Below, one piece after another: positions 21,889-40,519 of a DNA stretch of 64,000 bases. The position numbers and the translations under genes were made by a program. Every line of letters starts with the position of its first letter. The stretch's first letter is position 1. The DNA lies in NCBI GenBank assembly GCA_964637295.1, contig CAZWWE010000001.1, positions 252,312 to 316,311 on the forward strand, written 5' to 3'. Below the pieces are notes generated by a model that searched no databases, had not been told where the DNA came from, and saw only the letters and a list, made by a program, of their open reading frames with translations. Origin of the DNA: an uncultured Pseudomonadales bacterium. GTDB taxonomy: Bacteria; Patescibacteriota; Microgenomatia; UBA1400; PJMF01.

Positions 21889-24078
21889 TTATTTTGGTGG
21901 TTGGTAGTCGTTGATGTCGTAAATGCCGTGCTGGTCTGGTTTGAGGGTTTGCTCGTCATTTTCACTAAAGACAGTCTTAATTTGAAAATTATCTTTTTGA
22001 TCACGAGTTGTCAATTCTTGGTCGGCATTAAAAATTAATTGATCAGTTTTAAGCGCTTGTTCTGCTAATTTATTAGCGTTTTTTAGAGGATCAGTAGTAA
22101 GATCGACTTTTGGGTTTTTCCAAGCCAAAACACTGTTATTTAGATTCTCTTTTTCTTGAAAAGCCTGATTGTTGTCAAGTCGCTGTTTTTTTAAAGCTCT
22201 AATTTTTTGATAACTTTCAAAACTTTCACTCCTGGGATTTAGTCCAGAAGCTATGGTCTTTTTTTCATTTTTTTCATCTTCTTTTTTTAAGATTTCCTCA
22301 GGATTGGTGGTAATAACTTGATGTTCTTCTTCTGAAGCAATCACTCTCAATGCTACGTGATTTTGGCCGGCAAAGAAAATGCCTTCTCCTACGTCAGAAG
22401 AAACCAAGAGCTGTCTTTCGCCTTCAGATAAATAAAATGTTTGGGTGAGAATAGGGATAGAGGCGGTTGATTGTTTCATTAAAAATTGAATTGAGGCGTT
22501 AGAGACAATGGCCTTACCATAATCATTGCGTAAAAAATCTTCCACATCTTGAGTGATAGTGGTAATGCCCAGATAGTATTTGCGGGCTCTTTTGACCATG
22601 GAGTAAACAAAGGCAGCACTATCAGGATGCATCATAAAATACCACGCTTCATCAATGACCAAGATGCGTCTTTTGAGATTTTTTTTGACTCTAGTCCAAA
22701 TAAAGTCAAGAATAACGTACATAGCGATTGGTCGCAGCGACTCTTCCATTTCTTTGACAGAAAAAACTGTAAATTGCGAACTGATATCAACGTTAGAAGC
22801 TTGATTAAAAATACCACGAAAAGAACCGGTGATAAATTTTTCCAATCTTGCAGCCAAATCATCACTTTCTTCTCTTTCCATGCCGATCAGTGCTTTATAA
22901 AGATCTTCCATTAAGGGAGGAGTGTTTTTTTGTGTGGCTGGATCAGGAGTAATGCCTTTGGCTTTGTAGGCGGCAATGATGGCGCGATCAAGAATAGCTT
23001 CTTGTTGAGGGGTCATTTCTCCCAGCATTACTTTAAGCAAACCGTGAATGGAAAGAATTTTTTGTCCCAATTCGTTTTCACCTTCCTCGTAAACATTGGA
23101 TAGATCAAAAGGATTAATTTTTGCCTTTGAACCAAAAGTGAAATTGATATATTCACCACCGACCATTTTACATAGTTCTTCATATTCATGCTCTGGATCG
23201 AGAACAATAACTTCGGCGTCAAACATTAATTGTCTTAAGATTTCCAATTTGACAGTGTAAGATTTACCAGCGCCAGATTTGGCAAAAATCACCATGTTGG
23301 CATTTTCCATTTTGAAACGATCGAAAATGACTAATGAATCATTGTGTTCATTAATGCCATAAACAATACCAGTTTCCATGGTCAGCTCGGAAGAAGTAAA
23401 GGGAAAAGTCGTTGCCAGTGAGGTGGTGTCCATGTTTCTAGTGACTGAAAGGCGATCAACTCCCATTGGCAAAGTGGTTTTGAAGCCTTCGTCCATTTGT
23501 AGAGCAGATTTTTTGGAAACAATCATTAGCGCTCCTAGGGTACCCTGAATGCTTTTGGTGATTTTATCCAGCATTTCTTTGCTCTCAGCCCTCACAGTAA
23601 TGTAAAGTCCAAATTGAAAAAATCTTTCTGAGCCAGCAGCTAGTTGCTCTCTCATGGCGCGAGCATCACTTAGTTTAATTTCTGTGTTAATATTGCTAAT
23701 TTTTCCAGATCTAATGTCTGAAGTAATTTCTGCCTCCATTTCGGTAATTTTTCTCTTAAGATTATCAAGAATATCTCCCGTATCTGAAGGAAAAATAAAC
23801 ATAGATATATTGGCTTGATTAGGATAGTTAATTAAAGGAGAGAGCCAATTGGCTGGTACCGCCCTTGGGTAGCCAGCAATAAACAGAGTACGAGTATAAG
23901 TGGAGTTAATTTTTTGATAAGTAAAATCAACCTCAATTGCTTCTGGAGCAATGATGTCTTGAATGGTGACTAAACCACGAGAAAATTCGCTTAATTTTTC
24001 TTGCGTGTACTGTTCCGCGTTAATTTTATTCTGATCAGCTGTAACCGGAGTTTTTTTCTTAGAAAATAAATTTAGCAT
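21889..24078 (-). CDS. virB4: Type IV secretion ATPase VirB4/TrbE/CagE family (monoderm-type)
   Basis: Walker A VIFAKSGAGKSYTVK and Walker B ILVIDEAWYF. Start placed at MLNLFSKKK (ATG 24078), 1 nt after the upstream gene's stop. The track ORF starts at 24228 and overlaps the neighbour. Confidence 0.8.
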   Translation of the reverse strand: MLNLFSKKKTPVTADQNKINAEQYTQEKLSEFSRGLVTIQDIIAPEAIEVDFTYQKINSTYTRTLFIAGYPRAVPANWLSPLINYPNQANISMFIFPSDTGDILDNLKRKITEMEAEITSDIRSGKISNINTEIKLSDARAMREQLAAGSERFFQFGLYITVRAESKEMLDKITKSIQGTLGALMIVSKKSALQMDEGFKTTLPMGVDRLSVTRNMDTTSLATTFPFTSSELTMETGIVYGINEHNDSLVIFDRFKMENANMVIFAKSGAGKSYTVKLEILRQLMFDAEVIVLDPEHEYEELCKMVGGEYINFTFGSKAKINPFDLSNVYEEGENELGQKILSIHGLLKVMLGEMTPQQEAILDRAIIAAYKAKGITPDPATQKNTPPLMEDLYKALIGMEREESDDLAARLEKFITGSFRGIFNQASNVDISSQFTVFSVKEMEESLRPIAMYVILDFIWTRVKKNLKRRILVIDEAWYFMMHPDSAAFVYSMVKRARKYYLGITTITQDVEDFLRNDYGKAIVSNASIQFLMKQSTASIPILTQTFYLSEGERQLLVSSDVGEGIFFAGQNHVALRVIASEEEHQVITTNPEEILKKEDEKNEKKTIASGLNPRSESFESYQKIRALKKQRLDNNQAFQEKENLNNSVLAWKNPKVDLTTDPLKNANKLAEQALKTDQLIFNADQELTTRDQKDNFQIKTVFSENDEQTLKPDQHGIYDINDYQPPK

Positions 24079-24079
24079 A

Positions 24080-25243
24080 TTAAGTCGATGTTTGATTTGG
24101 TTGGGTTGACAATGGTTTTTGTAATGGTTGTATTTCTTCGCTGAAGTCGTCAGTTTCAGACATAGTTGTTGTAGCAGTTGCGGTAAACTCGCTTGAATTG
24201 TTGCTGTTGAGGCTTGGTGTACCTCCAAAAACTGGCACTTCGTTGGTGAACGAAGTTGTTACTTGAGGAATAACTGGGGTCTCTGGAGCAACTGGATTTA
24301 CTGGGTTTGCTGGATCCGCTAGAGGAACTGAATCCCTCGAAGTAAGCGGAGCCGTTTGTATTGTTGGTATTTCTTGGGCAACTGGTTGTTCTTGAGTTGC
24401 TGGTGCTTCTCGGGTGACTGGTTTTTCTTGAGCTACCGGCATTTCTTGAGCGACCGGTATTTCTTGAACAATTGGTCCTTCTTGAGTCACACTGTCGATT
24501 GAAGGATTAATGACTGATTGCTGTAAAGGTGTTGTTGTAATATTTGAACTCATAATTTTTTCTCCAAAGCTCGCCCTGACCAAGGGTGTGGTGTAATTCT
24601 CGTTATTGCTAATTTCTTGTCCCTCAGCTGCTTCGGGATTGTAATTAATATAAAAATTTTGAATAATTTCCTGAGTGTTTAGTTGTTTAGTGTAGAGTCC
24701 AAGTCGATTGAACTGAGAAATGAGATGATCGCGACGTGGCTCCAATAAATTTGCCGCTTTTTCCAAAATAATGCTTTTTTCAATACTATTGATGTCGAAA
24801 GTAGTTTTGCCAGGCAGAACATTGGTGGCGGTAATGAGACCCATTTCTCCTGGACTAGCTGGCACAGTGACGTAAAAATGTTTTTCCAAAACATTTCTTT
24901 CTTTAATCAAAGTGGCCACAAAATCTCGATACTGTTTAATTAGTTTAGCTTTGCGATCCGAGTTGGCTTTTTGCATTTGTTCATCAAGTAGTCTTAAGTA
25001 TTTAGTGACGTCTTTGGTTTGCGATTGAATGTTGATTTGAATAGGATAATTAAGAGAGTTTAATAAAGAACCATAGGTAAAAATGATAGCGTCTTGTTCT
25101 TGTTCGGCCAGCAAACTGAAATTCATCGTGCCCACCTGCAAAATAATTGAAGCAGTGCCGTCTTTCAAAAGAACAATATCGTTAATAATGTCATAGACAT
25201 CAAGAAATTCTTGAGTGGTGGAACTAATTACTTTATCGCTCAT
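24080..25243 (-). CDS. T4SS-associated hypothetical protein with Pro/Gln-rich heptad repeats
   Basis: Translationally coupled to virB4. C-terminal repeats PIVQEIPVAQEMPVAQEKPVTREAPATQEQPVAQEIP are encoded by 21-nt tandem repeats. Confidence 0.4.
   Translation of the reverse strand: MSDKVISSTTQEFLDVYDIINDIVLLKDGTASIILQVGTMNFSLLAEQEQDAIIFTYGSLLNSLNYPIQINIQSQTKDVTKYLRLLDEQMQKANSDRKAKLIKQYRDFVATLIKERNVLEKHFYVTVPASPGEMGLITATNVLPGKTTFDINSIEKSIILEKAANLLEPRRDHLISQFNRLGLYTKQLNTQEIIQNFYINYNPEAAEGQEISNNENYTTPLVRASFGEKIMSSNITTTPLQQSVINPSIDSVTQEGPIVQEIPVAQEMPVAQEKPVTREAPATQEQPVAQEIPTIQTAPLTSRDSVPLADPANPVNPVAPETPVIPQVTTSFTNEVPVFGGTPSLNSNNSSEFTATATTTMSETDDFSEEIQPLQKPLSTQPNQTST
24380..24500 (-). repeat. 21-nt tandem repeats encoding (P-V-A-Q-E-x-P)n
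   Basis: Plus-strand period-21 units: ...ttcttgagctaccggcatttcttgagcgaccggtatttcttgaacaattggtccttcttgagtcac. Confidence 0.6.
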
Positions 25244-25267: not shown

Positions 25268-26122
25268 TTAAGCCTTGATTACAAGGGGCTCAGCAATTTG
25301 GCCAGTAAGCTGAATTTCAACTGGAGTAAAATTCAGTTGATCCTTTTCTACAACAATTTGATAAAGCCCATCAGCTAGAGGACGATCGGTTAAAAATTGT
25401 CCATTCAGATCACTTTTCAAAACGCGCAGAGTTTGTTGATTTTGATCTTTAATTTCAATAATTGCTTGAGCAATTTTTTGATTGTTTTGATCGAGAATAA
25501 GTCCGGCGATTTGATTGGGCAGTAATGGTTTTATAGTACTGTTTTCATCAGGGAGTTTAAGCTTGCGAACTCTAGTTTGTAGATTGGGCTTTTCTTGTTT
25601 AATTGGCTCAGCTTTAATCTGTTCTGTTTTGACCTCGACTTCAGCGAATTGATTGAGCACTGAGCTAATTTTTTCTTTTTCACTCAACTCAAATTGATCG
25701 AGGCTATTTTCTTCGGGAATACTTTTTAAATATTCAAAAATGCGCTGTTTACGCGCAGGATTTAAATTGATATCTGGTGCAAAAAAATCGTCTTGCGTAG
25801 AGCTAATTTTATAATTAAAAAAATCTGGAATTTTATTAGATTTTTTCCAAAAAAATTTAGTTGGTTTATAGATGTTTTTGAAAAAAGTTTTGATCCAATG
25901 ATCGAGAGGTCTTTCTTCAATCGGTACAAAAGCAATGGCCGCTCCCAAGCCAACGACAGAAAAAACTAACGGCCACTTGATGATCCCAATTAGATTGGTT
26001 TTATAGATAATAAAAGCTAAAACTGCGGCGATAGCTAGTTCAGCAAATTGCTTGAGAGTCATGCTTCCCACAAGATGAAACTTATAGTTGGTAATATCTT
26101 GTGGAATTGGATGCTGTTTCAT
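25268..26122 (-). CDS. VirB3/PrgI-like two-TM membrane protein with C-terminal beta-sandwich-like domain
   Basis: N-terminal two TMs (LAIAAVLAFIIY..., WPLVFSVVGLGAAIAFV) immediately upstream of the VirB4 unit. C-terminus GLYQIVVEKDQLNFTPVEIQL is carboxypeptidase-regulatory-like. Confidence 0.35.
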   Translation of the reverse strand: MKQHPIPQDITNYKFHLVGSMTLKQFAELAIAAVLAFIIYKTNLIGIIKWPLVFSVVGLGAAIAFVPIEERPLDHWIKTFFKNIYKPTKFFWKKSNKIPDFFNYKISSTQDDFFAPDINLNPARKQRIFEYLKSIPEENSLDQFELSEKEKISSVLNQFAEVEVKTEQIKAEPIKQEKPNLQTRVRKLKLPDENSTIKPLLPNQIAGLILDQNNQKIAQAIIEIKDQNQQTLRVLKSDLNGQFLTDRPLADGLYQIVVEKDQLNFTPVEIQLTGQIAEPLVIKA

Positions 26123-26208: not shown

Positions 26209-27192
26209 TTATTTTTGGGCAGCGCTGGCCACTGCTGGAGTGATAATTTTGGCCTCGATATTAATTCCGGCCGAATTAGTTAGTTTGGCGCTAAATTTGT
26301 AAAAAGGATAGGCAATTTTTAATTCACTGTCATAGCGATATTCGATTTCGACCGCATACAAATCGGCTTCGATAATCCAATTAAGATCGATGACGTTGGC
26401 AATTTTGCTTTGAGCATCAATAATAGAGCCAACGCCATTTTTGATATTTTTAACAGCTTGGTCAAGCGAAAGAGAAGAAATTTCTCTTGCTGGCTCAAAG
26501 ACTTGATAGCTATCTTTAAATACAATTTTTCTAACTTCATAATTATGGTCGATTTTGCAAAAAAATGGATAATTATTTTCATTTTCGTAAAAAACTGAGA
26601 AGCCGTTTAACTCGTAAGTGAAAGGAATTTGTAAATAAACAGCGTCTTTTGGATCAGTTTCTCTTTGTTCTAATGTGCCACCAAGATACAAAATGCTATT
26701 TTTTTGAGCTATTAAAGATAGATCGAGATTGTATTTTTTATAAAAATTGGCGCATTGAGAGATTGCTTCTTCAATAACAATGGGAACAAAAGCACTTTCA
26801 TTTTTTGAGCCAATGTCAAAACTCCATCTGTTTTCAAAAACATTTTTAATTAAAAAGTTTTCGTCTTTAATCCAATAATTTCCCATTTTTTCATCTTTTT
26901 CCAATTGATATTCTCTAATGATTTTGTTGGCCAACTCATCTTCTAAATTTAAAGTGGCTTTGGCTTGAAAAATTGTAAAAAATTCTGGCACAAAAATTTT
27001 TTGGCCAGAAAAATCAATTTTTTTGTAAGTAGTCTGAGTCTGATTGTAATTATTGTTAACGAAATTATTTTGAACGATGGTTTCTTTTTGGGGAGTGATT
27101 AAAATCAATATCGCAGAAATCAATAATGAAACCGAAGCAAAAATAATTAATAGCGGAATGATTTTGATTTCTTTTTTGTTTTTTTTATTCAT
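26209..27192 (-). CDS. Bitopic membrane protein (possible VirB8-like T4SS component)
   Basis: Single N-terminal TM IKIIPLLIIFASVSLLISAILILI followed by a ~290-aa ectodomain. Overlaps the upstream giant gene by 8 nt. Confidence 0.3.
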   Translation of the reverse strand: MNKKNKKEIKIIPLLIIFASVSLLISAILILITPQKETIVQNNFVNNNYNQTQTTYKKIDFSGQKIFVPEFFTIFQAKATLNLEDELANKIIREYQLEKDEKMGNYWIKDENFLIKNVFENRWSFDIGSKNESAFVPIVIEEAISQCANFYKKYNLDLSLIAQKNSILYLGGTLEQRETDPKDAVYLQIPFTYELNGFSVFYENENNYPFFCKIDHNYEVRKIVFKDSYQVFEPAREISSLSLDQAVKNIKNGVGSIIDAQSKIANVIDLNWIIEADLYAVEIEYRYDSELKIAYPFYKFSAKLTNSAGINIEAKIITPAVASAAQK

Positions 27193-30100
27193 AGCAGGTG
27201 GTTACTCCATCATTTAAAAGTGGTGGATAATTGCCTTTATTGGTTTCTGGTACTAAAGTTTCAATAATGGAAAAATTTCTTGGACTAGGATGATAAAAAA
27301 CACCGTTAAAATCTACTTCATAATGCAGATGAGGTCCGGTTGAATTACCCCGATTGCCCATGGGGCCAATCAAAAAGCCTTCTTCAGTGTTCATGCAGGA
27401 TTCTGCCTGTGACAGCTGATCATTTGGCGCCTCAAAATGAGCAAATAATAATTTGCGACTAGTGCCGCTGTCGTCAAACGTCAAAACATAATAACAACCA
27501 TAGCCGCTGTCGCTACAACCCTTAAAGCAAAGTTCACCAGCGTAGGGCACATAAACATTGGGAAATTTGCCGCCGCCGCCGATATCATATGCATCAGCAT
27601 AGCCTTTAGAAAGAGGAGATCGATGAGAAGCATCTGCGTCTGGAGTTCCGACGCCAAAAGGTAATTGAGAAATGCCTCCGGTCGTTGGCCAACAACCGGC
27701 ACCAGCACTGCAGTTGCCAAGACAGACTCTGGCGGCGGTTTTGAGATTGTCTTGACCAGAGATAAAATTATTTTGGTAATAAAAGTTAAGCTCGATGGTG
27801 TTAATGATGGCAGTGTGATTGTAATCTGAGCTTAGGTCGTCGAGGGTATAAGAAAAAGTCAAGTTTTCTCCGGCTGGAATAATAATAAAGTCTGTTTCTG
27901 CGGGACTGGGATTTGCCAGGGGATCATTGACGTTGGCTGGCACATAGCTTGGTTCTTGTGGTATTGAAGAACCAGGATCGTTGAGTGGCTTTTGATCGAG
28001 GGCTTGATTGGCTTTGATAATTTTTTTGAAGTAAGCAAAATCTAGATTTTTTTGTGTTGGTATGGCGGGTATGGGTTTGCCACTTTCTTCCCAACCTTTT
28101 TTGCTTTGTTTAAATTTGATTTGATCTGTAATGTTGTTTATTTGTAGCGAAAAATCTTCTTTGGGCTTAACGGTGACGGTGTATTCGATGGAGAGTGGAA
28201 AACCGGGATTTTCACATTTAGTGCCATTGTTTTCAGGATTGGTACAGCCCTTGACAATTTTGGCAGTTTTTTTCATTTCTGCATATTTGGAAGTTTTTTC
28301 AACAGATTTGTTAATTTCAGATTCATTGAAAGGAAAATCAGTTAAAAAAGCTGAATTGAGACTAGTTTGATAAATCAAAACCAAGGTGGCCGTGGTGCCA
28401 AAAGTAATTAGCACGGCGCGACCAGCAGTTTGCATGGCGGTAGAATAATGTTGGCTGAGCAAGCTTTTGGCGCCATGTGGCAGTTGGGATTCAATTTGTT
28501 GTTGAGCAGAGACGTTGCTGTGTAAAATTCCGCCACTGGCTCCTCCGGCTCCACCTAGCGATTTACCAGCGGCCCCCAACAATCCTCGACTGCCAAATAG
28601 TCCGTTTCTGAGTAAAAAATAACCAGGAGCTAATAGCAAAAGCCAAGGGAGCAAGGCAGAAAGAGCGGCTAAAATTAGTCCTAAAACTATTAGTGGCCAA
28701 TATTTTTTAATTAGCTCAAGAATTTTTTCCAAGCCCATCTCGATCAGCTGCTCTTTAATTTTTTTGATAATGGGCAGCGCTGTTTCAGCGGCGCGCAAGG
28801 CCTCGCCTAAACCACCGGCCGCATCAAGAGCTAAATAAAGTCCCTCACTCAAGGCTTTGCTGGCTAGTTTTTTACCTTTTTGTCCTAAGGCACTGTCGAG
28901 AAAAGCTGTGCCCTGGTAATTCTCTCCGGGTGCAAAAGCTCTTTGCACGTAGCCACTGTCATCTGCCATAAAAGCATCTGCTCCAAATTGTTCAGCCATC
29001 TGTAGCATGTAAAAGTCCATGGGATTGATTTGCGGCGCAATTTGTTTCTGAAATACTTCTAGGCTGTATTCTTGATATGTGACTCCTGGAGCATAATAAT
29101 CAAAAAAAACTTTGAGCGTGTTTTGCTGTTCTGCTTGAGAAAGTTTAGCAATCTCTGTTTCTAAATATTTTTTGATAAGTTCTTGTTGTTGTTCTTGAAA
29201 AGCTAGGAGCTCTCGATTGTTAGGGTCGGCAAGCTTTGCCAGGCCTTCGGTAATTTGTTTGCCTCCGTAGCTTAAATTGAGTGCACCCAAGCGGCGCAAG
29301 GCTGCTAATTTTTTTGGATCTTTTTTGATGGTTTCGAAAAGTTGTTCTGCTTGTTCTGGAGTATATTTTTCTAGGCCCAGTTCTCGACCAACTATATTGA
29401 TATAGATAGCTCTTTTGCGTTTCCAATAAAAAATGATCAAATTGGCCAATTCTTCGCTGTGAGCATCGAAATCTTGTCGATCTAGGCTGTTGCCAAAAAG
29501 ATTGACAAAGCGGCCATAATCGAAATTTTTGGCATCTGGAATTAGAAATTCTGGCGGCAAGCCCTGTTGAATAAAAACTTCAACGAGCGGGCGAACATTT
29601 TCGATCACCAAGCTCATTCTGGCTCGATCTTGAGAGTTGGTGATGCTAATCAATTTTTCGAGGAAGGCTTTTTCTAAATAATTTTCATCTTGAATGATAT
29701 TGAGCTCAGATTCGATAATTTTGGCGAAATTTGAGTTATCTTGCTGAGTTGTTAATAGTTCTTCAGCTTTTTGACTAGTTAAAACATTTTCCTCAGTAGT
29801 GTCATTTTTGGCTCTGGAGCCAAGCTGGTCTGCTGTGAGTGGCTCTTTTTCGTTGGCACGAATTTGCACTTGACCGCCCTGAGCAATATTTCTGACGGCA
29901 GTGTTGAGTAAATTTAAACCATGAACATCCATTAATAAGTTTAAGGCTGTTTGGTTGCTAAAATTAATTCTTTCTGCTGGCTCACTGATTAATTTATCCA
30001 GCGAAAATTGCCCGCTAAGCAACAGGTTTTCTACTTGTGCAAAAGCTCGATCCATTAATTGCTGTCTTATTGCTAATGGAAGCTGGTCAAAAGTAATCAC

Positions 30101-30925
30101 TGTGCCTGGCGGTAAGCCAATTTTTGCCAGCGAAGCCGCGTTGAAATATCTACTTAGAGCTTGATTGATGGTGATAATTGAGAGCGACTGTAAATAGAGC
30201 TTGGCTTGAGGATCGAGCTCAGAGATTTTGAGGGGAGGGGCTTGTTTAGGTGACTCATCAGGAGGCCTTGGCTCTGTTTCTTGACCAGCGGCTTCTGCGC
30301 CTTCTTCATTTTTTGTAGTACTTGGCCAGGCTATTCCAGCCCCAGAGCCTTGCTTTTGTTCCAAATCTTCTTCTACAGAACTTGTTTCTGTCGATTGAAT
30401 CGCTTCAACACTCAAGCTGGGTCGAAGAATTGCATAAATTAATCGAATTCTTTCAATAATTTGCCGTGAAGATTCATAGTCTTCAATTTTTTGTAGCTCT
30501 TCGAGGCTAATTTTTTCTTCTGCTGGAGAAACGCCAATTAAGCTAAAAGTATTTTCCAATCGGTCAAGTTCCACTCTTTGAGCTGAGTTAATAGAAATCT
30601 TATTACTGGTCAAGGAAGTGCGGATTTGTTCAACGAAATTTACTAGGTCCGAGAGAAACAAAAAGGGCTCTTTGCCGTCAACGGGAACAGTGCCGTTCTC
30701 GATATCATTGGCAGTGCTCAAGTCAAATTCGCCACCATAACTAAATCCTTCAATGGCAAAATTTCCCTTAACTTTTTTGTGGCCGGCCGCCTCATTGTAG
30801 AAATCACTAATCCAATCAATGCTTTTTTGAAGCACTTCACTGATTTGATCAGCACTAAGACTATCAACTCCAGCCAATTTTTTCAGCTTAATGCGAGTGT
30901 TTTGATTGATTTTCTCGTCCGCCAT
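27185..30925 (-). CDS. Giant T4SS-associated membrane protein with C-terminal M23 peptidoglycan endopeptidase domain
   Basis: 1246 aa. ~740-aa N-terminal region, then TM YWPLIVLGLILAALSALLPWLLLLAPGYFLL. Gly-rich GLLGAAGKSLGGAGGASGG. C-terminal M23 signature GNRGNSTGPHLHYEV. Confidence 0.6.
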   Translation of the reverse strand: MADEKINQNTRIKLKKLAGVDSLSADQISEVLQKSIDWISDFYNEAAGHKKVKGNFAIEGFSYGGEFDLSTANDIENGTVPVDGKEPFLFLSDLVNFVEQIRTSLTSNKISINSAQRVELDRLENTFSLIGVSPAEEKISLEELQKIEDYESSRQIIERIRLIYAILRPSLSVEAIQSTETSSVEEDLEQKQGSGAGIAWPSTTKNEEGAEAAGQETEPRPPDESPKQAPPLKISELDPQAKLYLQSLSIITINQALSRYFNAASLAKIGLPPGTVITFDQLPLAIRQQLMDRAFAQVENLLLSGQFSLDKLISEPAERINFSNQTALNLLMDVHGLNLLNTAVRNIAQGGQVQIRANEKEPLTADQLGSRAKNDTTEENVLTSQKAEELLTTQQDNSNFAKIIESELNIIQDENYLEKAFLEKLISITNSQDRARMSLVIENVRPLVEVFIQQGLPPEFLIPDAKNFDYGRFVNLFGNSLDRQDFDAHSEELANLIIFYWKRKRAIYINIVGRELGLEKYTPEQAEQLFETIKKDPKKLAALRRLGALNLSYGGKQITEGLAKLADPNNRELLAFQEQQQELIKKYLETEIAKLSQAEQQNTLKVFFDYYAPGVTYQEYSLEVFQKQIAPQINPMDFYMLQMAEQFGADAFMADDSGYVQRAFAPGENYQGTAFLDSALGQKGKKLASKALSEGLYLALDAAGGLGEALRAAETALPIIKKIKEQLIEMGLEKILELIKKYWPLIVLGLILAALSALLPWLLLLAPGYFLLRNGLFGSRGLLGAAGKSLGGAGGASGGILHSNVSAQQQIESQLPHGAKSLLSQHYSTAMQTAGRAVLITFGTTATLVLIYQTSLNSAFLTDFPFNESEINKSVEKTSKYAEMKKTAKIVKGCTNPENNGTKCENPGFPLSIEYTVTVKPKEDFSLQINNITDQIKFKQSKKGWEESGKPIPAIPTQKNLDFAYFKKIIKANQALDQKPLNDPGSSIPQEPSYVPANVNDPLANPSPAETDFIIIPAGENLTFSYTLDDLSSDYNHTAIINTIELNFYYQNNFISGQDNLKTAARVCLGNCSAGAGCWPTTGGISQLPFGVGTPDADASHRSPLSKGYADAYDIGGGGKFPNVYVPYAGELCFKGCSDSGYGCYYVLTFDDSGTSRKLLFAHFEAPNDQLSQAESCMNTEEGFLIGPMGNRGNSTGPHLHYEVDFNGVFYHPSPRNFSIIETLVPETNKGNYPPLLNDGVTTCYE

Positions 30926-33245: not shown

Positions 33246-34910
33246 TTAAACTTGAAAATCAACTTCATCTTCAGTAGTGGCAGTTTCCCTAGCCTTTCTT
33301 TCTTCAGCAGCCCTAATTTTTTCTTTATTATAAGCTTGTGAAACCAGAGCTTTTTCCCAATTATTTGGATCAAATGCTTTTCCTTCAAGTAGCGTATCCA
33401 AGGCTCTAGCTTCTTCATTTCCTTTAGCAATCTGTATGCCCATGTTGGTTTTAACAGATTTGCCAATCGTTGGAATTGCAACATCCAATCCCTGACCTTT
33501 GGATGATCTAACTCCCTCAAACACGCCTTTTCCAAGACCGTATGCTCCTCTAGCAATTGGAGGTGTGTAAACAGTTGCGTTCTTCATATTCTTCAATGCC
33601 GATCCCGCCAATTGTCCAAATACGCCTTCTTCCACACCCATGGCCTTTTTGACTTGTTGCATGATTTCTGGAATGACCAAGAGAATGCCGATGCCTAGAA
33701 TGACGGGAATGATGTTGGCTTGACCTTGACCAACTAAAAATGGAGGCATGAAGCCACCGCCAAAAGCGCCATCCAGCGCGTCACCGGTGCCTTGCAGGCT
33801 TCTAATCGGAGCAGTTAGCATTCTTTGTACCAACACACAGAGTAAAACCACTGGCCACAGCACCAAGTTGCCAGCTAAATTTTTGAGCCATTTGCCGAAA
33901 GTATCTTTACCAGGAAAAGCGCCAAGCATCAAGATAATTGGCGAAAAGATAATTTGGATTAACACGGCCACATAAGTTTTGACCAGTTCAAAAAAAATTT
34001 TGAAAGTGGCAAAAAGAATAGCGATGCCGATAATGACCGTACCTAGTAAACTAGATAGCCAGGCGATTGCTTCTCCAACAAAAGAAATATTAAGCGCATC
34101 TTCCATAAATTGTTCAATGGCATTTTGCGTGGCACTGCCAGTGTCAGTGCCCTTAAACATTAGACCAATTAAGCCAAAAACATTGCGAGTGATAATGTCG
34201 GGCCCTTCGGTAAAATAGCCGGCTAAAACATACATCGCCACGTACATGATATCAATCATCAATCCGGCGATGGCATAGGAAAAAGTAACGGCGAGCATGG
34301 CGATCACCACGTTGGGAATAGCTTGCTGAGCCGTAATGGCAGCTTGACCAACCTTGGTGCGAAACATGATCATGAAACCAATAATCAGAAAAATAACCAC
34401 AAAAAAAAGATAAGCTAAATTGCGAAAAGATTTCCAAGTTTCTAGAATTGGATCAAGGGCGGAAAAACCTAAACCCTGGGCCTGCGCTTCTGGAATAATT
34501 TTGGCAGATTTCATCAAGTCAGCAACATAAGAGCGCGTGCTAGCGGGTGGAGTATACAAAGCTACGATGCCTTGATTTACTGAACCAATTAAACCCCCGC
34601 CCAAGCTTTTTTCAAGAGCAATCTTATCTGCACCAGTTATGCCTGCAAGCTTGGCTACTGTTTCTCCTCCATACACACTGCCATTAATAAAATTAAAACT
34701 ATTAGACCAAGTTGAAGAAACATTTTTTTCTTGAGCGACACCTTCTCCAAGAATTGCGTTGGTATAACTATTTGTAGCTTCTTCTATGCGAAAAATAGAG
34801 GCAATCCAATCAGAAACAAAATTCGCTTTTGCAGGTTTAATTGATATAAAAAAACACGAAAAAATACACAAAATAATTAATGATAAGCGAAAGTCTTTTA
34901 CTTGTGTCAT
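33246..34910 (-). CDS. Polytopic membrane protein, VirB6/TrbL-like
   Basis: Signal peptide plus at least six TMs (LAYLFFVVIFLIIGFMIMF, AIAGLMIDIMYVAMYVLAGYF, VIIGIAILFATFKIFFELV, LIQIIFSPIILMLGAF, LVLWPVVLLCVLV, IIPVILGIGILLVI) and a hydrophilic C-terminal tail. Lies within the T4SS cluster. Confidence 0.4.
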   Translation of the reverse strand: MTQVKDFRLSLIILCIFSCFFISIKPAKANFVSDWIASIFRIEEATNSYTNAILGEGVAQEKNVSSTWSNSFNFINGSVYGGETVAKLAGITGADKIALEKSLGGGLIGSVNQGIVALYTPPASTRSYVADLMKSAKIIPEAQAQGLGFSALDPILETWKSFRNLAYLFFVVIFLIIGFMIMFRTKVGQAAITAQQAIPNVVIAMLAVTFSYAIAGLMIDIMYVAMYVLAGYFTEGPDIITRNVFGLIGLMFKGTDTGSATQNAIEQFMEDALNISFVGEAIAWLSSLLGTVIIGIAILFATFKIFFELVKTYVAVLIQIIFSPIILMLGAFPGKDTFGKWLKNLAGNLVLWPVVLLCVLVQRMLTAPIRSLQGTGDALDGAFGGGFMPPFLVGQGQANIIPVILGIGILLVIPEIMQQVKKAMGVEEGVFGQLAGSALKNMKNATVYTPPIARGAYGLGKGVFEGVRSSKGQGLDVAIPTIGKSVKTNMGIQIAKGNEEARALDTLLEGKAFDPNNWEKALVSQAYNKEKIRAAEERKARETATTEDEVDFQV

Positions 34911-35025: not shown

Positions 35026-35823
35026 ATGATCAATCAAGAACAAACTGATAAGCTTAAGGACATTTTAGGTTCAAGTCAAGATATTCTGCTGATCATGCCA
35101 AATATTGCTGATCTAGACTTGTTTTTAGCCGCTTACTGTTTTTATAGTTGTCTTGCACCCAAAAAAAGAATTCGCCTTTTGAGTCCAAGTGCTAAGCTCA
35201 GCATCCCGGCTGTTTTGAAAAAATTGCTTGATCAAAAAATTATCGAAACAGAATTGGGTAAAGAAAATTTGCTGATTAGCTTTCCTTATCAAGCAGAGCA
35301 GGTTGACAAGGTTTCTTACTACATTGGCGAAGAACAGCAACGTTTTTATTTAACCATCAAGCCCAAAAAAGGTTTTGCGCCTCTAGATAGTCAACAAGTA
35401 GAATTTTTTTATGCTGGGGCGCAAATTGACCTGATCTTTCTATGGGGAGTAAAAAATCTAGATGATTTGCAACAACTATATCTTGCTTACGAAGATCTTT
35501 ATCAGGGCAAAAATAATTTTGTGGCGACCATCAACCATCATTTTGTGCCAGATTTTGGCAATTTGAATTTGGAAATTGCTCCGGCTAGTTCATATTGTGA
35601 AGCAATTTTGGCCATACTAACTAAAATCGATCCACAAAATGAAAATTTTTTATCGCAAAGCAATTTGCCTAGTTTATTGCTATATGGCATTGAGAGTAAA
35701 ACTAAGGCTTTACAAACCAAAGAAGCTGGAGCAGAAACCTTTGCTAGCGTTGCGAGCTTATTAAAGCTGGGGGCCAAGAGATATTTTAAGCTAGCTGGTT
35801 CAAAAAAGATCAAAGACAGTTAA
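35026..35823 (+). CDS. Hypothetical protein
   Basis: 265-aa ORF with no recognisable motifs. Confidence 0.3.
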   Translation: MINQEQTDKLKDILGSSQDILLIMPNIADLDLFLAAYCFYSCLAPKKRIRLLSPSAKLSIPAVLKKLLDQKIIETELGKENLLISFPYQAEQVDKVSYYIGEEQQRFYLTIKPKKGFAPLDSQQVEFFYAGAQIDLIFLWGVKNLDDLQQLYLAYEDLYQGKNNFVATINHHFVPDFGNLNLEIAPASSYCEAILAILTKIDPQNENFLSQSNLPSLLLYGIESKTKALQTKEAGAETFASVASLLKLGAKRYFKLAGSKKIKDS

Positions 35824-35826
35824 AAA

Positions 35827-38736
35827 CTATAGCGAGTTCATGGCATTGACCAAAATGGCCATAGTAATCGAGCCCGGTCTGTCATAACGAGGATATTGAC
35901 TACCGTCACTAAAATTTTGACAAACGTTCGAGCCAGCGTAACAAAATTTTTTAGCATTTTCGATCAACCAATTTTTCTTTTCATCACTAAAATTCCAAAT
36001 ACTTTGTTTTTGGTCTAAATCAGCTCTCAGTTTAGCAATTACACTGGCAGTGGGACTGACGCTACAATTAAATTCTACATAATCAAGACAAAAAACTAGA
36101 TCCATGTCAGCATGGCGTTCATCAATGTAAGCAAGTGGGTGGGGATGATCTTCACTAGTAAATTGTGGTGGGCATTTGCCGCCATTTAGCCAGCGAGTTG
36201 ACTTGGCACAATTTTGATTACCCAAACCATTGTAGGCACCAATGGCTGCCACCAAAGTTTCGTAGTCAATATTGTTTTTATCGAAACCATTGGTAAATTT
36301 CTCAATTAAGTGTTCCATGGCCAGCTTAGCATCTTCTTTCAGTGAGCCGCCGTGCAAGTTCCCACCGTCAAAAAGTGACTGATCAGCGTTTGAACCACCT
36401 TCAGTCCAGTGGATACCGGCCGCAATTTCGCAAGGAATGCCAGTCATTTTTTCTGCATATTCATAAGCCTCGATGACTTCAGGAGTTAATCTGGGGGCAA
36501 TTTCCGCAGTGAAAATATCTTTGGCGAATTGCGGAATACCTGCAACATCTGGCATGTTTTTAATATTTTTGAACGCTTCGCCGCTACAGGCACTAGCAGA
36601 ATTTTTGCCACGGGGTTTACCACTGCAACGACCCAAGAACATGTCTTCCACTCTCTGACAAGAAGCGATGTAATCATAGGTTTGCTCGAAGCTGGCTCTC
36701 AAGGTTTGTTGAATTTTGCGCAACATGAAACCCAATCCAAAATCTGGCAATAGAATTTCTTTTTCTCCCTCATCTAAGTTCACTCCAAAATCGTAATTAG
36801 TACAAACTTGTACAATTTTTGTTGAAGGCACACCATTGGCATTTGTTTCTATAATTTCCTCATCGTGACATTCGTCGGCTAGACTAATAGAGTCACTGGC
36901 TTTGATGCCGATGTCTGCTCCTTTGAAAGTGTAATACTTGGGAATAACTCCTTTTTTGTTTTTCATGTCTTCAATGACGTTATTGCGTACCGTGTCAAAA
37001 AAAATTTCTTCATTCCAGAAAATCCCCAAAGCTTTATTAACATCTTTAATGGTTTCTCCAAGAGGAATGACTAAATAAGCGTTAACAATCATGGGTTCCT
37101 CTAATTTGGGTGGATCACTATTAATGGTCAATTGCCATTGAAAAAGATTGGTGTCTGCTGATTTTAATTTATCGACAATAAGTTGATTGACTGGACTTTG
37201 GTATTGATCTTTTTTAATATCCTTGGAGGCAGGCGTAAACAAGTCGCCTGCTTTTTCCCAATTCAACTCTTCTTGATTAAAAATTTCTTCGATGCCAGCG
37301 CTGCCACTCGCACTGTTTGTGGTAGTATTTTCAGTGCCCAACAAATTGCCAGCTAGCGTAGTTTCTTCAACAATTCTCAAAGTTGTGTTGGTGCAATTAG
37401 GAGCGCTACCGTTGATCATGTCGATTAAGACATTGCGCAAAGCATTGTCATCACTTCTTTGGCATTGAGGATAACTATCCGGACATTTAATAATGGGACT
37501 GCCCAAGTAGGGTGCACCTTTGGCTAATTCATAAATTTCCTTTCTTTTATTTTCTTGATCTTTATGATCTTTGGTATTTTGGGCTTTGACTTGAATAGCC
37601 ATCTTAGTTAATTCTAGGGTATCAACATTGCCGGTTGCCAAAGATTTGTTGGTGCCAAAGTCTGGGATTTTAAAAGCTACGATGATGGGCGCATGTACTT
37701 CTTCGTCAATTTGCGGATTGGCTTGTAAAAAATAAAAAGTGTCATTAGCTGCGCTTTTACCTTTATTTTGTTGAGGCACTAAGACTAAAAAAGCTAGACG
37801 ATAAAGAGAATCTAAATCAATTGGCAAGCGAGCGACTGCTGCTCTTAAACTTGCCAACTGATCAAGGCTGATACTTGGTGCTTCGTTTTCTTCCTGATCT
37901 TGCTTGGATGCAGAAAACTGATCGATGGTCAAATCAGCACAAACTTTTTTGTACAATTCTTCATTTTTTAGATTTGGTCTAGCTTGAGCAACCCAATCCA
38001 TTAGAATTTGATTATCAAAATTGACGTCAACGATGTGCTCATCGACCTTCAATTCTTGTTGACTCATGATTGAGCGACTGGCGCCTTGTTCATTAACCGC
38101 AATTTGAAAAGTATATGTTTTATTTAAAGAACAAGGCTCACCAACAATTTCTTTGCAAATTTTAATAGCAGAGAGAGTATTTTGAATTTTGGCCAAACAC
38201 TGATCGTAACTAGAGAGCAATCTTTGACTTACGCCAGCAGCATTGAGCATGTATTCGTTACCAATTTGTTGATAATTAGCTCCAAACATACCTTCAAAAG
38301 AACTATTTTTCAAAGTTTCTGTTTTGGTTTCCATGCCTCGCAAAAGTGGGATGCGGGCTTTGGACAGGTCAACCAGATAAGGATCATTGCCTCCAAAAAT
38401 AGTGGGATTAAATCCTTTGTAAAAACTTTCTTGCGGAGGAGTACCGCTGCTAAAAAACTTGTCAATTTCTCCCCAAAGAGTTTTGTTAATTACCCACTGC
38501 GCCCCGCCGCAATGTGCCTCATAACCCTGATCTTTAATCATGTTATTTAACAAGTCTTCGTAGAACAAACCAGCTTTGGCTTGTGGCAAAAACATGGGCA
38601 GCAGCGTGTAAGTGGCACTTTCGCTAGCCACAGACGCTTGAGTATTTTGTGCCTCAACTGGTTTGGCTTTAAGCAAAAACAATTGGCAAAACAAAAAAAA
38701 GCAGAGTAAATTTATCTTGAAAAATCGATTAAACAC
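35827..38736 (-). CDS. Large secreted protein (969 aa); possible divergent lysozyme-like domain near C-terminus
   Basis: Signal peptide MFNRFFKINLLCFFLFCQLFLLKAKPVEA. C-terminal segment HWTEGGSN...AAIGAYNGLGN is reminiscent of an SLT/lysozyme-like E...AYNxG pattern. This is a weak resemblance. Confidence 0.3.
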   Translation of the reverse strand: MFNRFFKINLLCFFLFCQLFLLKAKPVEAQNTQASVASESATYTLLPMFLPQAKAGLFYEDLLNNMIKDQGYEAHCGGAQWVINKTLWGEIDKFFSSGTPPQESFYKGFNPTIFGGNDPYLVDLSKARIPLLRGMETKTETLKNSSFEGMFGANYQQIGNEYMLNAAGVSQRLLSSYDQCLAKIQNTLSAIKICKEIVGEPCSLNKTYTFQIAVNEQGASRSIMSQQELKVDEHIVDVNFDNQILMDWVAQARPNLKNEELYKKVCADLTIDQFSASKQDQEENEAPSISLDQLASLRAAVARLPIDLDSLYRLAFLVLVPQQNKGKSAANDTFYFLQANPQIDEEVHAPIIVAFKIPDFGTNKSLATGNVDTLELTKMAIQVKAQNTKDHKDQENKRKEIYELAKGAPYLGSPIIKCPDSYPQCQRSDDNALRNVLIDMINGSAPNCTNTTLRIVEETTLAGNLLGTENTTTNSASGSAGIEEIFNQEELNWEKAGDLFTPASKDIKKDQYQSPVNQLIVDKLKSADTNLFQWQLTINSDPPKLEEPMIVNAYLVIPLGETIKDVNKALGIFWNEEIFFDTVRNNVIEDMKNKKGVIPKYYTFKGADIGIKASDSISLADECHDEEIIETNANGVPSTKIVQVCTNYDFGVNLDEGEKEILLPDFGLGFMLRKIQQTLRASFEQTYDYIASCQRVEDMFLGRCSGKPRGKNSASACSGEAFKNIKNMPDVAGIPQFAKDIFTAEIAPRLTPEVIEAYEYAEKMTGIPCEIAAGIHWTEGGSNADQSLFDGGNLHGGSLKEDAKLAMEHLIEKFTNGFDKNNIDYETLVAAIGAYNGLGNQNCAKSTRWLNGGKCPPQFTSEDHPHPLAYIDERHADMDLVFCLDYVEFNCSVSPTASVIAKLRADLDQKQSIWNFSDEKKNWLIENAKKFCYAGSNVCQNFSDGSQYPRYDRPGSITMAILVNAMNSL

Positions 38737-38763: not shown

Positions 38764-39657
38764 CTAGGAAAGAATGCGAATACCAAAAATAATTTCCAAG
38801 AGTTGAGCGATCCAGTAGGCAGCAAATAAAATAATAAAACCAATGATGGCTGAGGTAATTTTTTGCTTCCCTTCGTCTAATGATTTGGAGTTATTAGCTC
38901 CAGATAACATTTGAAAACCTCCAAGCAACATGACGACGAATAAAATAATACCTGCGATGGGAAAAATGAAAAACTGCAGTGCTCGAGAAATAATTTTTCC
39001 AGGATTTGACAAATCTACGCTACTACCACCGATTTTAAAGGGATTGAGGCTTTCTAAGGTTGCCGCGCTAACTTCAACGTCATTAATTCCTACATCAGTA
39101 TTCTGACATTGACCATCTCGGTACCAGCCACAGCAACGAGTGTTACCAGTACTGCGATTGGGAATTGCCTCTTGATTAGAGCACACACACTTTTTGGCAT
39201 TTTGAGCATCGGGATCATATTCAGTGCCACAATAAACCTCGTTGACCTGAGGGGGAGCGCTGAGACATTGAGTTTTTTCTGGATTTAGCCAGCCGCAGCA
39301 GACTCTGTTGACCACATAATTATAGGACTGCCATTGTCCTCCTGGACAATCGCAAACCCCTCCCTGTGGGACGCTGGCTCTCATTCTGCTTTCACCACAG
39401 GCATAAATATTTGGATCCTTATTGGCGTAGCACTGACCTTCGATGGAAGAATAAGAGCCGCAGCAGTAATATATTTCACTAAGGACATTGCCGATAAAAT
39501 CTGGTTTATTATTAACATTACTGCAATTGCACATATTACTAACATCTTCTCCAAGTCGAGCTCTGAAAGTTTCACCGCATTGATATGCCTGGCTAGTATT
39601 AGTGAAAATTAAACAGAAAAAAACAGAAATAAATAGAGTTTTTAGTATTTTTTTCAT
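38764..39657 (-). CDS. Cys-rich secreted ectodomain fused to C-terminal VirB2-like pilin hairpin (paralog 9)
   Basis: Start at the internal ATG 39657 (signal peptide MKKILKTLFISVFFCLIFTNTSQA), 1 nt after the upstream gene's stop. CCGW/CxC-rich ectodomain. C-terminal IILFVVMLLGGFQMLSGANNSKSLDEGKQKITSAIIGFIILFAAYWIAQLL. Confidence 0.55.
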   Translation of the reverse strand: MKKILKTLFISVFFCLIFTNTSQAYQCGETFRARLGEDVSNMCNCSNVNNKPDFIGNVLSEIYYCCGSYSSIEGQCYANKDPNIYACGESRMRASVPQGGVCDCPGGQWQSYNYVVNRVCCGWLNPEKTQCLSAPPQVNEVYCGTEYDPDAQNAKKCVCSNQEAIPNRSTGNTRCCGWYRDGQCQNTDVGINDVEVSAATLESLNPFKIGGSSVDLSNPGKIISRALQFFIFPIAGIILFVVMLLGGFQMLSGANNSKSLDEGKQKITSAIIGFIILFAAYWIAQLLEIIFGIRILS

Positions 39658-39658
39658 C

Positions 39659-40519
39659 TTATTCTCCAAATCCTGGTATGCGTAAAATTGATACACCAAT
39701 AAATTGTAAGATAGTGACTGAAAAAATGACAAATAAAAGGCCAATAATTGCCGAAGTAATAATTTCTTTTGCCTCTTTGGTTTTATTTGGATCGCCTTGA
39801 GAAACTGATAGCATGAAAGAACCCACCAAAATCATAATTAGAACGATGCCGCCACCGGCTGTCAGGCCAATGGTCACGATGGTTGTAATAACACTTTCTG
39901 GATCACTAGGAATACAACCTACAGCTGTCCAGACGCCGCCATTTTGAAAACAAGCCTGACAAGCTTCGAATTGGCTGGTGCCTTCTTTGATTTGTTGTTT
40001 GCAAAGATCATAATTGGCAACTGCGTCAGTTTTTGTATTACATTGATTTTCCTCATTGCCGCATTGCAAAGCTGCTTGCGGAGAAGCAATGTAAATTTTT
40101 TGATCTGTAGTGGTGAGAGTGGGATATAAAATAACTGTTAGTTTATAAGAGCAATTAGGTTCAATATTTTTTCCTGCAATCACAATATCAACCGCGCCAT
40201 TTTTTACATCAAAAAAAGAATTATACATATCAGTAAATCCATTTTTGCAAGCTAAAGTTGTGCCGTCTAAATAAACTTTAATAGCTTTTCCATCAACAAT
40301 TTTGCCATCCGCATAAGCGATGTCGGTTAATTTCACATGCACATCTGTTCCAGCCTGGACACAGCCACTTAAAAAATTGCAATTTTGTCCATCTCTTTCT
40401 TGATAGACTTCCGTTGTCCCAATTCTGGCAGTCCCAGCCGCCAACACTTCTTTCACGTTGAGTGAAAAAAGTGAGCTAATCAATAAAAACACTAGAGCTA
40501 TTTTTCTCATTTTCGTCAC
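39659..40519 (-). CDS. Cys-rich secreted ectodomain fused to C-terminal VirB2-like pilin hairpin (paralog 8)
   Basis: Signal peptide MTKMRKIALVFLLISSLFSLNVKEVLA. Cysteine-rich ectodomain. C-terminal IVLIMILVGSFMLSVSQGDPNKTKEAKEIITSAIIGLLFVIFSVTILQFI. Confidence 0.55.
   Translation of the reverse strand: MTKMRKIALVFLLISSLFSLNVKEVLAAGTARIGTTEVYQERDGQNCNFLSGCVQAGTDVHVKLTDIAYADGKIVDGKAIKVYLDGTTLACKNGFTDMYNSFFDVKNGAVDIVIAGKNIEPNCSYKLTVILYPTLTTTDQKIYIASPQAALQCGNEENQCNTKTDAVANYDLCKQQIKEGTSQFEACQACFQNGGVWTAVGCIPSDPESVITTIVTIGLTAGGGIVLIMILVGSFMLSVSQGDPNKTKEAKEIITSAIIGLLFVIFSVTILQFIGVSILRIPGFGE

Follow-up and report, generated by a model that had tools for sequence, protein, structure and literature searches.

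We analysed a 64-kb window of contig CAZWWE010000001.1 (assembly GCA_964637295.1) from a Microgenomatia genome, in which 11 genes were counted between positions 21889 and 40519. Judged from sequence, this block very probably encodes the Microgenomatia variant of a chromosomal type IV secretion system (T4SS) that is found in most Patescibacteria, also known as Candidate Phyla Radiation (CPR) bacteria. The system is already described; the block is an ordinary member of it, and both its headline features and the functional proposal are in published papers. The first-pass annotation of the window had proposed a chromosomal, non-conjugative T4SS of monoderm type beside dnaA and had suggested a comparison of synteny across related genomes. 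The proposal is borne out by the domain matches, by the lack of mobility genes in the window and by that comparison, in which the gene order was conserved in at least 70 species-level genomes. ORF calls and translations confirmed that every open reading frame (ORF) it had listed is present where it was placed. Genes were judged within 21889–40519 and in the flanks out to both window ends. To obtain relatives, one genome per GTDB species was scanned; 263 loci encode a VirB4 relative, and the neighbourhood counts given below refer to the best 80 of them.

The core operon consists of five tightly packed genes on the minus strand, which encode the M23 membrane protein, a YycH/YycI-like bitopic protein, a PrgI/VirB3-like protein, TrsD and VirB4. 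The VirB4 ATPase is of the MPF_FATA/CD1110 type and 729 residues long (21889–24078, ORF to 24228, minus strand), and was assigned with both Pfam and NCBIfam. It matches Pfam P-loop_TraG with 93 bits (1.5e-26) as well as CagE_TrbE_VirB, and it reaches 399 bits against a cut-off of 325 for NCBIfam NF045971, the "VirB4-like conjugal transfer ATPase, CD1110 family". The Walker A (SGAGKS) and Walker B (ILVIDEAW) motifs are both readable in the translation, as had been claimed. Translation most probably begins at the ATG at 24078, 1 nt past the stop codon of the upstream gene, since the relatives align from residue 1–2 of the 729-residue version. VirB4 is 67–90% identical to the best 80 genome matches, which are CPR metagenome-assembled genomes (MAGs), against at most 36% for the best non-CPR match, and the nearest plasmid-borne VirB4 proteins are all from Bacillota or Actinomycetota, which are monoderm.

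VirB4 covers only positions 148–734 of the NF045971 model and lacks the canonical N-terminal domain. The gene directly upstream (24080–25243, minus strand) is translationally coupled to virB4 with a gap of 1 nt and encodes a TrsD-like protein of 387 residues (NCBIfam TrsD/TraD, 2.5e-5). Its ~215 N-terminal residues correspond to TrsD/TraD and to N-terminal stretches of VirB4 models (positions 15–120 and 102–290), while the remainder is a disordered tail rich in Pro, Gln and Thr. Because model positions 15–120 fall on TrsD and 148–734 on VirB4, the alignments indicate that VirB4 is split and that its N-domain is carried on the separate, coupled TrsD-like protein. The first-pass annotation had described this gene as a Pro/Gln-repeat protein; gene and tail are indeed there, but the product is more specifically a TrsD-like split VirB4 N-domain. 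Its VirB3/PrgI-like assignment holds for the next gene (25268–26122, minus strand), the product of which matches Pfam PrgI with 30.3 bits (gathering threshold, GA, 27) and has two transmembrane (TM) segments at residues 21–39 and 47–65. This protein continues into a C-terminal extension of ~200 residues with a weak match to a CarboxypepD_reg-like β-sandwich (23.5 bits, below GA).

The VirB8 position in the operon is taken by a bitopic membrane protein of 327 residues (26209–27192, minus strand), which was characterised by TM prediction and structure modelling. It has a single N-terminal TM segment at residues 14–32 (helix 11–32 in the model), and the first 8 nt of its gene are shared with the end of the hydrolase gene upstream. 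Searches of Pfam and NCBIfam returned no family match for this protein, and only 52 close homologues were found. An AlphaFold model computed from 38 sequences has a mean predicted local distance difference test score (pLDDT) of 88.4 and a predicted TM-score of 0.82; in Foldseek its best match is YycH, with a probability of 1.0. In the model, the ectodomain consists of repeated α+β modules of the YycH/YycI kind. A VirB8 protein with an NTF2-type fold was considered here and rejected, as the Foldseek top 50 contained no VirB8-type chain. Thus, of the VirB8-like candidate proposed at first, the bitopic topology with an N-terminal TM segment stands and the NTF2-type fold does not: according to the model, the protein resembles a VirB8-like scaffold in topology and in its place within the operon but differs from it in fold. 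This result is in keeping with published work, which found no VirB8 for most Patescibacteria. Bacillus subtilis YycH and YycI are bitopic proteins that regulate WalK; their identity to the 327-residue protein is 7–9%, without sequence similarity. Moreover, there are no WalRK genes near the 327-residue gene, which instead lies within the T4SS operon and overlaps the hydrolase gene.

The first gene of the operon (27185–30925, minus strand) encodes a membrane protein of 1246 residues with a C-terminal M23 domain, assigned from Pfam M23 and a family profile. By itself the protein reaches 25 bits for Pfam M23, below the GA of 28.7, and matches PDB entry 3slu at 1e-4. A profile built from 35 positional homologues, however, matches solved M23 structures in the PDB with an E value of 1e-22. 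Among these homologues M23 is found in 27 of 35, NAGPA in two and CHAP in one, and the early placement of an M23 endopeptidase at this end of the protein is therefore upheld. The FAH and HLHYE (HLH) motifs are present. The layout comprises an N-terminal region of ~730 residues that is predicted to be cytoplasmic, two to three hydrophobic segments between residues ~735 and 860, and a C-terminal region of ~400 residues that ends in M23. For the N-terminal 730 residues the family profile gave chance-level matches only. Taken from its sequence, the protein is likely the wall-breaching component of the apparatus, in the role of VirB1. A separate LysM+M23 peptidase is encoded at 55428–56591, 15 kb beyond the block.

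The best VirB6/TrbL candidate is a polytopic protein of 554 residues (33246–34910, minus strand), selected by its topology and by weak homology signals. It has a signal peptide, an ectodomain of ~140 residues, six TM segments and a helical cytoplasmic tail, and belongs to a family of 511 homologues, all unannotated. No match was obtained in Pfam or NCBIfam, and none by profile among PDB sequences. Three independent signals, weak but concordant, make it a VirB6 candidate, although an unproven one. First, an AlphaFold2 model (pLDDT 65.6) has as its top Foldseek hit in the PDB the TrwI/VirB6 protein of R388 (8rt9_F; E value 0.29, probability 0.80, TM-score 0.34), and more TrwI chains follow. Second, one of 33 relatives matches Pfam TrbL and TrbL_5 at about 2e-3. 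Third, hhalign aligns the family with an 8-TM protein from Pontibacillus with a probability of 69.6% and an E value of 4e-5; the Pfam TrbL match of the Pontibacillus protein spans residues 188–389 and encloses the region aligned by hhalign. The initial VirB6/TrbL label thus keeps its polytopic topology and the three concordant signals, each of which lies below threshold.

A second minus-strand operon (40519–35827) encodes two pilins followed by a protein of 969 residues. In both pilins the C-terminal T4SS_pilin domain scores above GA, in line with their earlier description as pilin fusions. Pilin fusion 1 (38764–39657, ORF to 39744, minus strand) matches Pfam T4SS_pilin with 32.7 bits (GA 26.6) and TrbC/VirB2 at 5.7e-4; its start is probably the ATG at 39657. 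It consists of a signal peptide, a Cys-rich ectodomain of ~200 residues with 19 Cys and a C-terminal, VirB2-like two-TM T4SS_pilin domain. Pilin fusion 2 (39659–40519, minus strand; 286 residues, 29.6 bits, above GA) has a signal peptide, a Cys-rich ectodomain of ~190 residues and T4SS_pilin at its C-terminus. The motif "GGVWTAVGC...RIPGFGE" near its C-terminus is found again in P0234, which is related to the 969-residue protein, and stands there at the C-terminal end.

More pilins are found 14 kb beyond dnaA, where an array of seven divergent VirB2-like pilin genes is located (4683–8118, plus strand). All seven match T4SS_pilin, six of them above GA, and in an alignment the nine pilin paralogues, seven from the array and two from the locus, show 21–31% mutual identity. 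The pilins of the window reach 17–32 bits for the NCBIfam model "Mbov_0395 pilin-like", below its cut-off of 40. In the last array pilin (7351–8118) the pilin domain is N-terminal, the reverse of the architecture of both locus pilins, and the C-terminal part is composed of a linker rich in Thr and Pro, after which come two repeats rich in Cys ("C..YC.NGYH..S.G...CGP"). A gene for an ECF-type sigma-70 factor (4064–4630, minus strand) is divergent from the array, which suggests dedicated regulation of these pilins.

The 969-residue protein (35827–38736, minus strand) is a Cys-rich protein of two modules with 22 Cys, and a signal peptide is predicted, as expected for the secreted protein noted at first. 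Pfam and PDB searches with it, profile searches included, were empty. An exhaustive profile search recovered 462 representative relatives with modular matches, which delimit an N-module (residues ~40–700) and a C-module (~715–969); in the latter, two Glu residues are invariant and the motif YNGxGN occurs. The N-module also occurs in proteins of 1100–1500 residues. Among its relatives, P0234 ends in a T4SS_pilin domain very similar in sequence to the C-terminal part of pilin fusion 2, and P0235 and P0267 combine a GH5-like part with a C-terminal SLT_3 lysozyme-like domain. Of the C-module carriers, 4 of 34 have T4SS_pilin and 1 of 34 has CHAP. Locus L083, a distant one, retains the N-module (27% identity over 722 residues), but its C-module is replaced. 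Because relatives carry fusions to pilin domains, the 969-residue protein appears to be functionally tied to the pilins, and its sequence features indicate that it is probably associated with the pilus or the surface. Both modules belong to a large domain-shuffling family in CPR metagenomes, with fusions to T4SS_pilin, SLT_3, GH5 cellulase-like and CHAP domains. An assignment of the C-module as a lysozyme or SLT domain is no more than a guess and found no support: there was no Pfam match in 27 + 34 members, two PDB profile searches were empty and hhalign to SLT_3-bearing relatives gave a probability below 1%. The likeness (E-G-G-N-x-P, HWTEGG...YNGLGN) is thus one of motif only.

The arrangement of these genes is widely conserved. 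The best 80 VirB4 loci are from records titled Pacebacteria, Woesebacteria, Microgenomates or Patescibacteria MAGs; some are labelled "uncultured Pseudomonadales bacterium", "candidate division TM6" (CP011212.1) or "Limisphaerales", which look like mislabels by submitters or placeholder names. The conserved order is DUF4012-yidC-dnaN-dnaA-virB4-trsD-prgI-(bitopic)-(large hydrolase). In these 80 loci virB4 has dnaA as a neighbour in 75, TrsD in 74 and PrgI in 70, and prgI is nearly always preceded at its 5′ side by a bitopic ORF of 190–390 residues and, before that, by a membrane protein of 1100–1680 residues. Synteny of the whole block extends to L082, a close relative, and also to the distant locus L083, in the order solute-binding protein (SBP), VanW, SpoIID, pilin, pilin, a protein of ~900 residues, one of ~270 residues on the opposite strand, the VirB6 candidate, a large protein on the opposite strand, hydrolase, bitopic protein, PrgI and TrsD. 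It persists where the VirB6 candidate is only 39% identical.

The block lies next to dnaA (20225–21793, minus strand; read from the translation and given as context), the virB4 stop being 95 bp upstream of the dnaA start; beyond dnaA follow dnaN and then rnpA-like and yidC genes. The cumulative GC skew has its minimum and changes sign near 20 kb, beside dnaA/dnaN, which places the origin of replication at or adjoining dnaA. A scan for DnaA boxes found 24 in comparison with 16 ± 4 expected, hence no overall enrichment; two box-like sites lie in the dnaN-dnaA spacer and two in the dnaA-virB4 spacer. Provided that the origin position is correct, the T4SS core operon would be immediately to the right of the origin, on the lagging strand and head-on to replication. 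Such a placement is the reverse of a simple expectation of gene dosage and co-orientation.

A conventional conjugative element of the Gram-positive type, that is, an integrative and conjugative element (ICE) or integrated plasmid with its relaxase, oriT and integrase beyond the window, could in principle account for the same genes. In its favour, VirB4 falls into a conjugal-transfer family (CD1110), the window encodes a VirD4-like ATPase, and of 4,103 plasmid records that match VirB4, 2,738 are classed as conjugative. A domain scan of every ORF of at least 100 residues in the window found no relaxase, integrase or transposase, as the first-pass annotation had also stated. There were no matches to tRNA genes or Rfam families in the 64 kb, and no compositional break or island was seen across this low-GC chromosome segment (38% GC). 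The locus is instead positioned between dnaA and housekeeping wall genes, and because its gene order recurs in 70 or more species-level genomes of Patescibacteria we take it to be chromosomal and not an ICE. Furthermore, protein identities follow genome divergence, and a published survey counted only 109 relaxases in 3,035 genomes, 15 of them near virB4 (PMC12102498). From the 64 kb searched and from this conservation we therefore consider a conjugative element highly improbable and reject it.

The VirD4-like ATPase bears on the same question. It is a soluble member of the VirD4/TrwB superfamily with 742 residues (50258–52486, minus strand), matching TrwB_AAD_bind with 51.6 bits (GA 20.5) and TraG-D_C with 24.6 bits (GA 22). 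No TM or hydrophobic segment was predicted and thus no N-terminal anchor was found, as had been described. Its N-terminal region of 340 residues is without assignment, the NCBIfam CD1115 family is matched at 5e-14, far below the cut-off, and the match to TrwB (7e-7) lies around Walker A only. The gene is 26 kb from virB4, and a role of its product in the apparatus is doubtful. As there is no relaxase in the 64 kb, and the only ATPase resembling a type IV coupling protein (T4CP) is soluble and distant, we take the machine to be non-conjugative. Beside the gene, at 49648–50180, a fragment of a Gp49/HigB-like toxin (69 residues) overlaps a dnstrm_HI1420-type antidote gene (112 residues), and radA (48072–49496) is located just upstream of this toxin-antitoxin pair.

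Which of the genes in and around the block belong to the apparatus is a further matter. Two of them are on the plus strand. One encodes a cytoplasmic protein of 719 residues (31026–33185), known as an ORF, with no Pfam, NCBIfam or PDB match and with unproven membership in the apparatus. In L083, a gene of equal position and strand encodes a protein that is 33% identical to it over 610 residues (E value 6e-95). The close relative L082 carries a gene for 831 residues in this slot that shows no similarity, and the slot is therefore not uniformly occupied. The other encodes a cytoplasmic protein of 265 residues (35026–35823), likewise an ORF of conserved position and unproven membership, without a family match in Pfam or NCBIfam; its counterpart in L083, alike in position and strand, is 42% identical, and further counterparts are present in L081 and L082.

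It is quite possible, if not the interpretation that we favour, that only the core, meaning the operon from the hydrolase to VirB4 together with the VirB6 candidate and the pilins, constitutes the apparatus, and that the 719-residue, 265-residue and VirD4-like proteins, and possibly the 969-residue protein, are unrelated neighbours kept by backbone synteny. The 719- and 265-residue genes are on the opposite strand and encode cytoplasmic proteins without T4SS homology, the gene in the 719-residue slot of L082 is unrelated, and the clearly unrelated SBP, VanW and SpoIID genes are equally syntenic. The VirD4-like gene is remote from virB4 and adjacent to a toxin-antitoxin pair, and the T4CP homologue of Southlakia epibionticum is non-essential. 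The 265- and 719-residue genes nevertheless hold their position and strand even at 39% identity of the VirB6 candidate, and the 969-residue gene is co-oriented with the two pilins and has relatives that are fused to pilin domains.

Several observations weigh against reading the whole block as a T4SS of the Patescibacteria type. The 719-residue, 265-residue and VirD4-like genes may be merely conserved neighbours in a streamlined genome, the evidence for VirB6 is below threshold in every single test, and the VirB8 position is occupied by a different fold. In the M23 domain, the first zinc-ligand motif (His...Asp) is atypically spaced, and an outward-facing M23 requires an odd number of TM segments, compared with the two to three that are predicted. 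The relaxase search covered 64 kb of the genome only. Finally, apparatus and pilus are known here from genes alone, and the essentiality data come only from Saccharimonadia, a different class (PMC10633639).

The comparison with known systems nonetheless supports the assignment to the Patescibacteria T4SS. The saccharibacterium S. epibionticum has an unusual T4SS and an essential pilin array, and neither a coupling protein nor a relaxase could be recognised for it (Wang et al., Cell 2023, PMC10633639), and in its transposon sequencing data the T4SS and pilin array are essential for epibiotic growth and comEC is dispensable (PMC10633639, PMC12857230). A survey of Patescibacteria detected VirB4 in 2,417 of 3,035 genomes, as a clade nested in MPF_FATA, with TrsD as its most abundant partner and PrgI/VirB3 common (Quinonero-Coronel et al., Microb Genom 2025, PMC12102498). 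The survey described VirB6 as "scarce" in Microgenomatia and VirB8 as nearly absent, and it found M23 in some VirB1-like proteins (PMC12102498). It further reported 441 pilin arrays of 2–11 genes with ~25% identity, chiefly in Microgenomatia and Saccharimonadia, T4CP homologues that are mostly far from virB4, and virB4 near dnaA, dnaN and rnpA (PMC12102498). A 2025 FEMS review restates this picture. Our locus shares with these systems (S. epibionticum SEML1_0006-0019 and the survey) the MPF_FATA-type VirB4, the adjacent TrsD and PrgI/VirB3, a polytopic VirB6 candidate, a wall hydrolase of the peptidase type, divergent VirB2-like pilin arrays, the lack of a relaxase (in 64 kb here), a distant T4CP homologue and proximity to dnaA/dnaN/rnpA. 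It differs in that a VirB6 candidate and a YycH/YycI-like protein fill positions that the survey found scarce or absent in Microgenomatia, and in that two pilins have large Cys-rich ectodomains; in addition, the Microgenomatia form is known from genes alone.

The conjugative T4SSs that Gram-positive bacteria carry (pCF10 Prg/Pcf, pIP501 Tra, pGO1 Trs and the C. difficile CTn-type CD1110/CD1115 systems) have the same single-membrane set of VirB4, PrgI/VirB3, a polytopic VirB6-like protein and an anchored wall hydrolase, and the pGO1 subclass also shares TrsD with the system in the window. They possess in addition a relaxase and oriT, a membrane-associated T4CP within the cluster, SLT+CHAP hydrolases, NTF2-fold VirB8-like proteins (PrgL, TraM, TcpC) and adhesins in place of pilins, and they are mobile; none of these features was found here. 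The ICE module of mycoplasmas, which are wall-less monoderms, comprises the Mbov_0395 pilin-like protein and the VirB4 Mbov_0397, and its VirB4 model matches the VirB4 of the window at 279 bits, below the cut-off of 590. The mycoplasma elements are true mobile ICEs that integrate by means of a DDE transposase-type enzyme.

The closest VirB4 outside the CPR or on a plasmid is encoded on a megaplasmid of Pontibacillus sp. ALD_SL1 (NZ_CP062975.1, ~351.8–361.4 kb; 36% identity, E value 3e-118). Its cluster contains the same parts: two PF18895 pilins, the TrbL-like 8-TM protein, a VirB3-like 2-TM protein, a TrsD-like protein, a CD1110 VirB4 and a large, N-anchored M23 hydrolase. The protein at the TrsD position matches the TrsD of the window at 9e-28 in phmmer, and one pilin, which scores 47 bits, bears the NCBI name "Mbov_0395 family pilin-like conjugal transfer protein". 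In the 12 kb to the left and to the right of the VirB4 match there is no relaxase, and the type assigned to the record is non-mobilizable. In contrast to our locus, the hydrolase of 1050 residues is encoded 3′ of VirB4 rather than at the head of the operon and adds NlpC/P60; there is no YycH/YycI-like gene, no homologue of the 969-residue protein and no fusion of pilins to ectodomains; and the cluster is not beside dnaA, its host being a free-living member of the Bacillota. A small M23 gene lies directly 3′ of VirB4 on a Carboxydocella plasmid.

The Pontibacillus cluster establishes that the combination of pilins and M23 exists in Bacillota. The initial description of this combination as atypical did not survive: M23 is the usual C-terminal domain in the positional family, published work has pilin arrays as a hallmark of the clade, and a Bacillota cluster combines pilins with M23. 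According to a published statement, VirB2-like pilins are absent from Gram-positive/MPF_FATA T4SSs other than those of Patescibacteria. As read from its sequence, the Pontibacillus pilin cluster contradicts this statement, and the pilins may have arrived with the monoderm ancestor and not been co-opted later.

On the basis of these assignments the apparatus might work as follows. VirB4 would form hexamers, with its N-domain supplied in trans by TrsD, and in the single membrane VirB4-TrsD would attach to PrgI/VirB3 and to the VirB6-like channel protein. Local cleavage of peptidoglycan cross-links by M23 of the 1246-residue protein could let the apparatus cross the wall, and the YycH/YycI-like protein could act as an extracytoplasmic scaffold or regulator at the place of VirB8 in other systems. 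VirB2-like pilins would be extracted from the membrane by VirB4 and polymerised into a short pilus or conduit, which pilins with Cys-rich ectodomains and the 969-residue protein might decorate or tip, contacting or attacking the host cell surface. The machine most likely mediates host-dependent exchange, either protein export to a host bacterium or uptake of material from it.

A narrower proposal is that the machine is dedicated to import, like H. pylori ComB or the archaeal Ced system, and that bringing host DNA or macromolecules into the CPR cell is its sole function. T4SSs that import DNA without a relaxase do exist in ComB and Ced, with weak VirB4-type matches to CedB and CedD; CPR bacteria are without nucleotide biosynthesis, radA is 24 kb away, and uptake has been raised as a possibility in reviews (PMC11665869, PMC12857230). 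The CedB and CedD matches, however, are those of a generic P-loop and far below the cut-offs, and no DNA-binding or ComEC-like component was found in the locus with Pfam or NCBIfam. In S. epibionticum, moreover, transformation needs type IV pili together with comEC, a gene that can be dispensed with, unlike the essential T4SS. We regard sole import as rather unlikely, and exchange with the host, in whichever direction, is the function that we favour.

The window contains several further features. Cell-wall genes that are syntenic in relatives flank the T4SS block (40580–46209), among them a SpoIID-like gene with a coiled-coil N-terminus and VanW/PG_binding_4, and the flanking solute-binding protein, also syntenic in relatives, has a long N-terminal region rich in Ser, Thr and Pro. 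A DUF4012 membrane protein of 977 residues (13143–16076) is kept beside yidC/dnaN in 57 of the 80 related loci. Three type IV pilin/pseudopilin genes with N_methyl motifs (59887–63809), two of them with Cys-containing C-terminal domains, constitute a second, unrelated filament system and adjoin a gene for a protein of 673 residues (61788–63809, minus strand) without a family match. The left window edge (439–1530) encodes a Fic/DOC-family protein with a C-terminal DeoR-like helix-turn-helix. Scanning for promoters and terminators yielded nothing informative, the DNA being rich in AT.

A more far-reaching interpretation, which we regard as speculative and on balance improbable, is that the Microgenomatia T4SS pilus is a modular device for surface display and penetration, in which swappable Cys-rich ectodomains on VirB2-type anchors bind or breach the host wall, that a YycH/YycI fold replaces VirB8 as a scaffold coupled to M23, and that pilin-bearing T4SSs are ancestral to a branch of the monoderm MPF_FATA systems. 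If this were true, the ectodomains would include the N- and C-modules of the 969-residue protein, swapped in relatives for lysozyme-like, GH5, CHAP or pilin domains, and it would follow from the Pontibacillus cluster that pilin-bearing T4SSs are neither a CPR innovation nor a later co-option from diderms. What the window adds is more modest and represents leads for specialists, not a new kind of system. It provides candidates for two subunits that the survey could not find in Microgenomatia, a VirB6-like protein and a YycH/YycI-fold protein at the VirB8 position, together with a gene-fusion link between a large family of secreted proteins and the pilins. The Bacillota cluster with the same parts bears on whether pilins were inherited with the monoderm T4SS. 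These leads concern the CPR T4SS, which is one of the few machines proven essential for the epibiotic lifestyle of an abundant and mostly uncultured group of bacteria.

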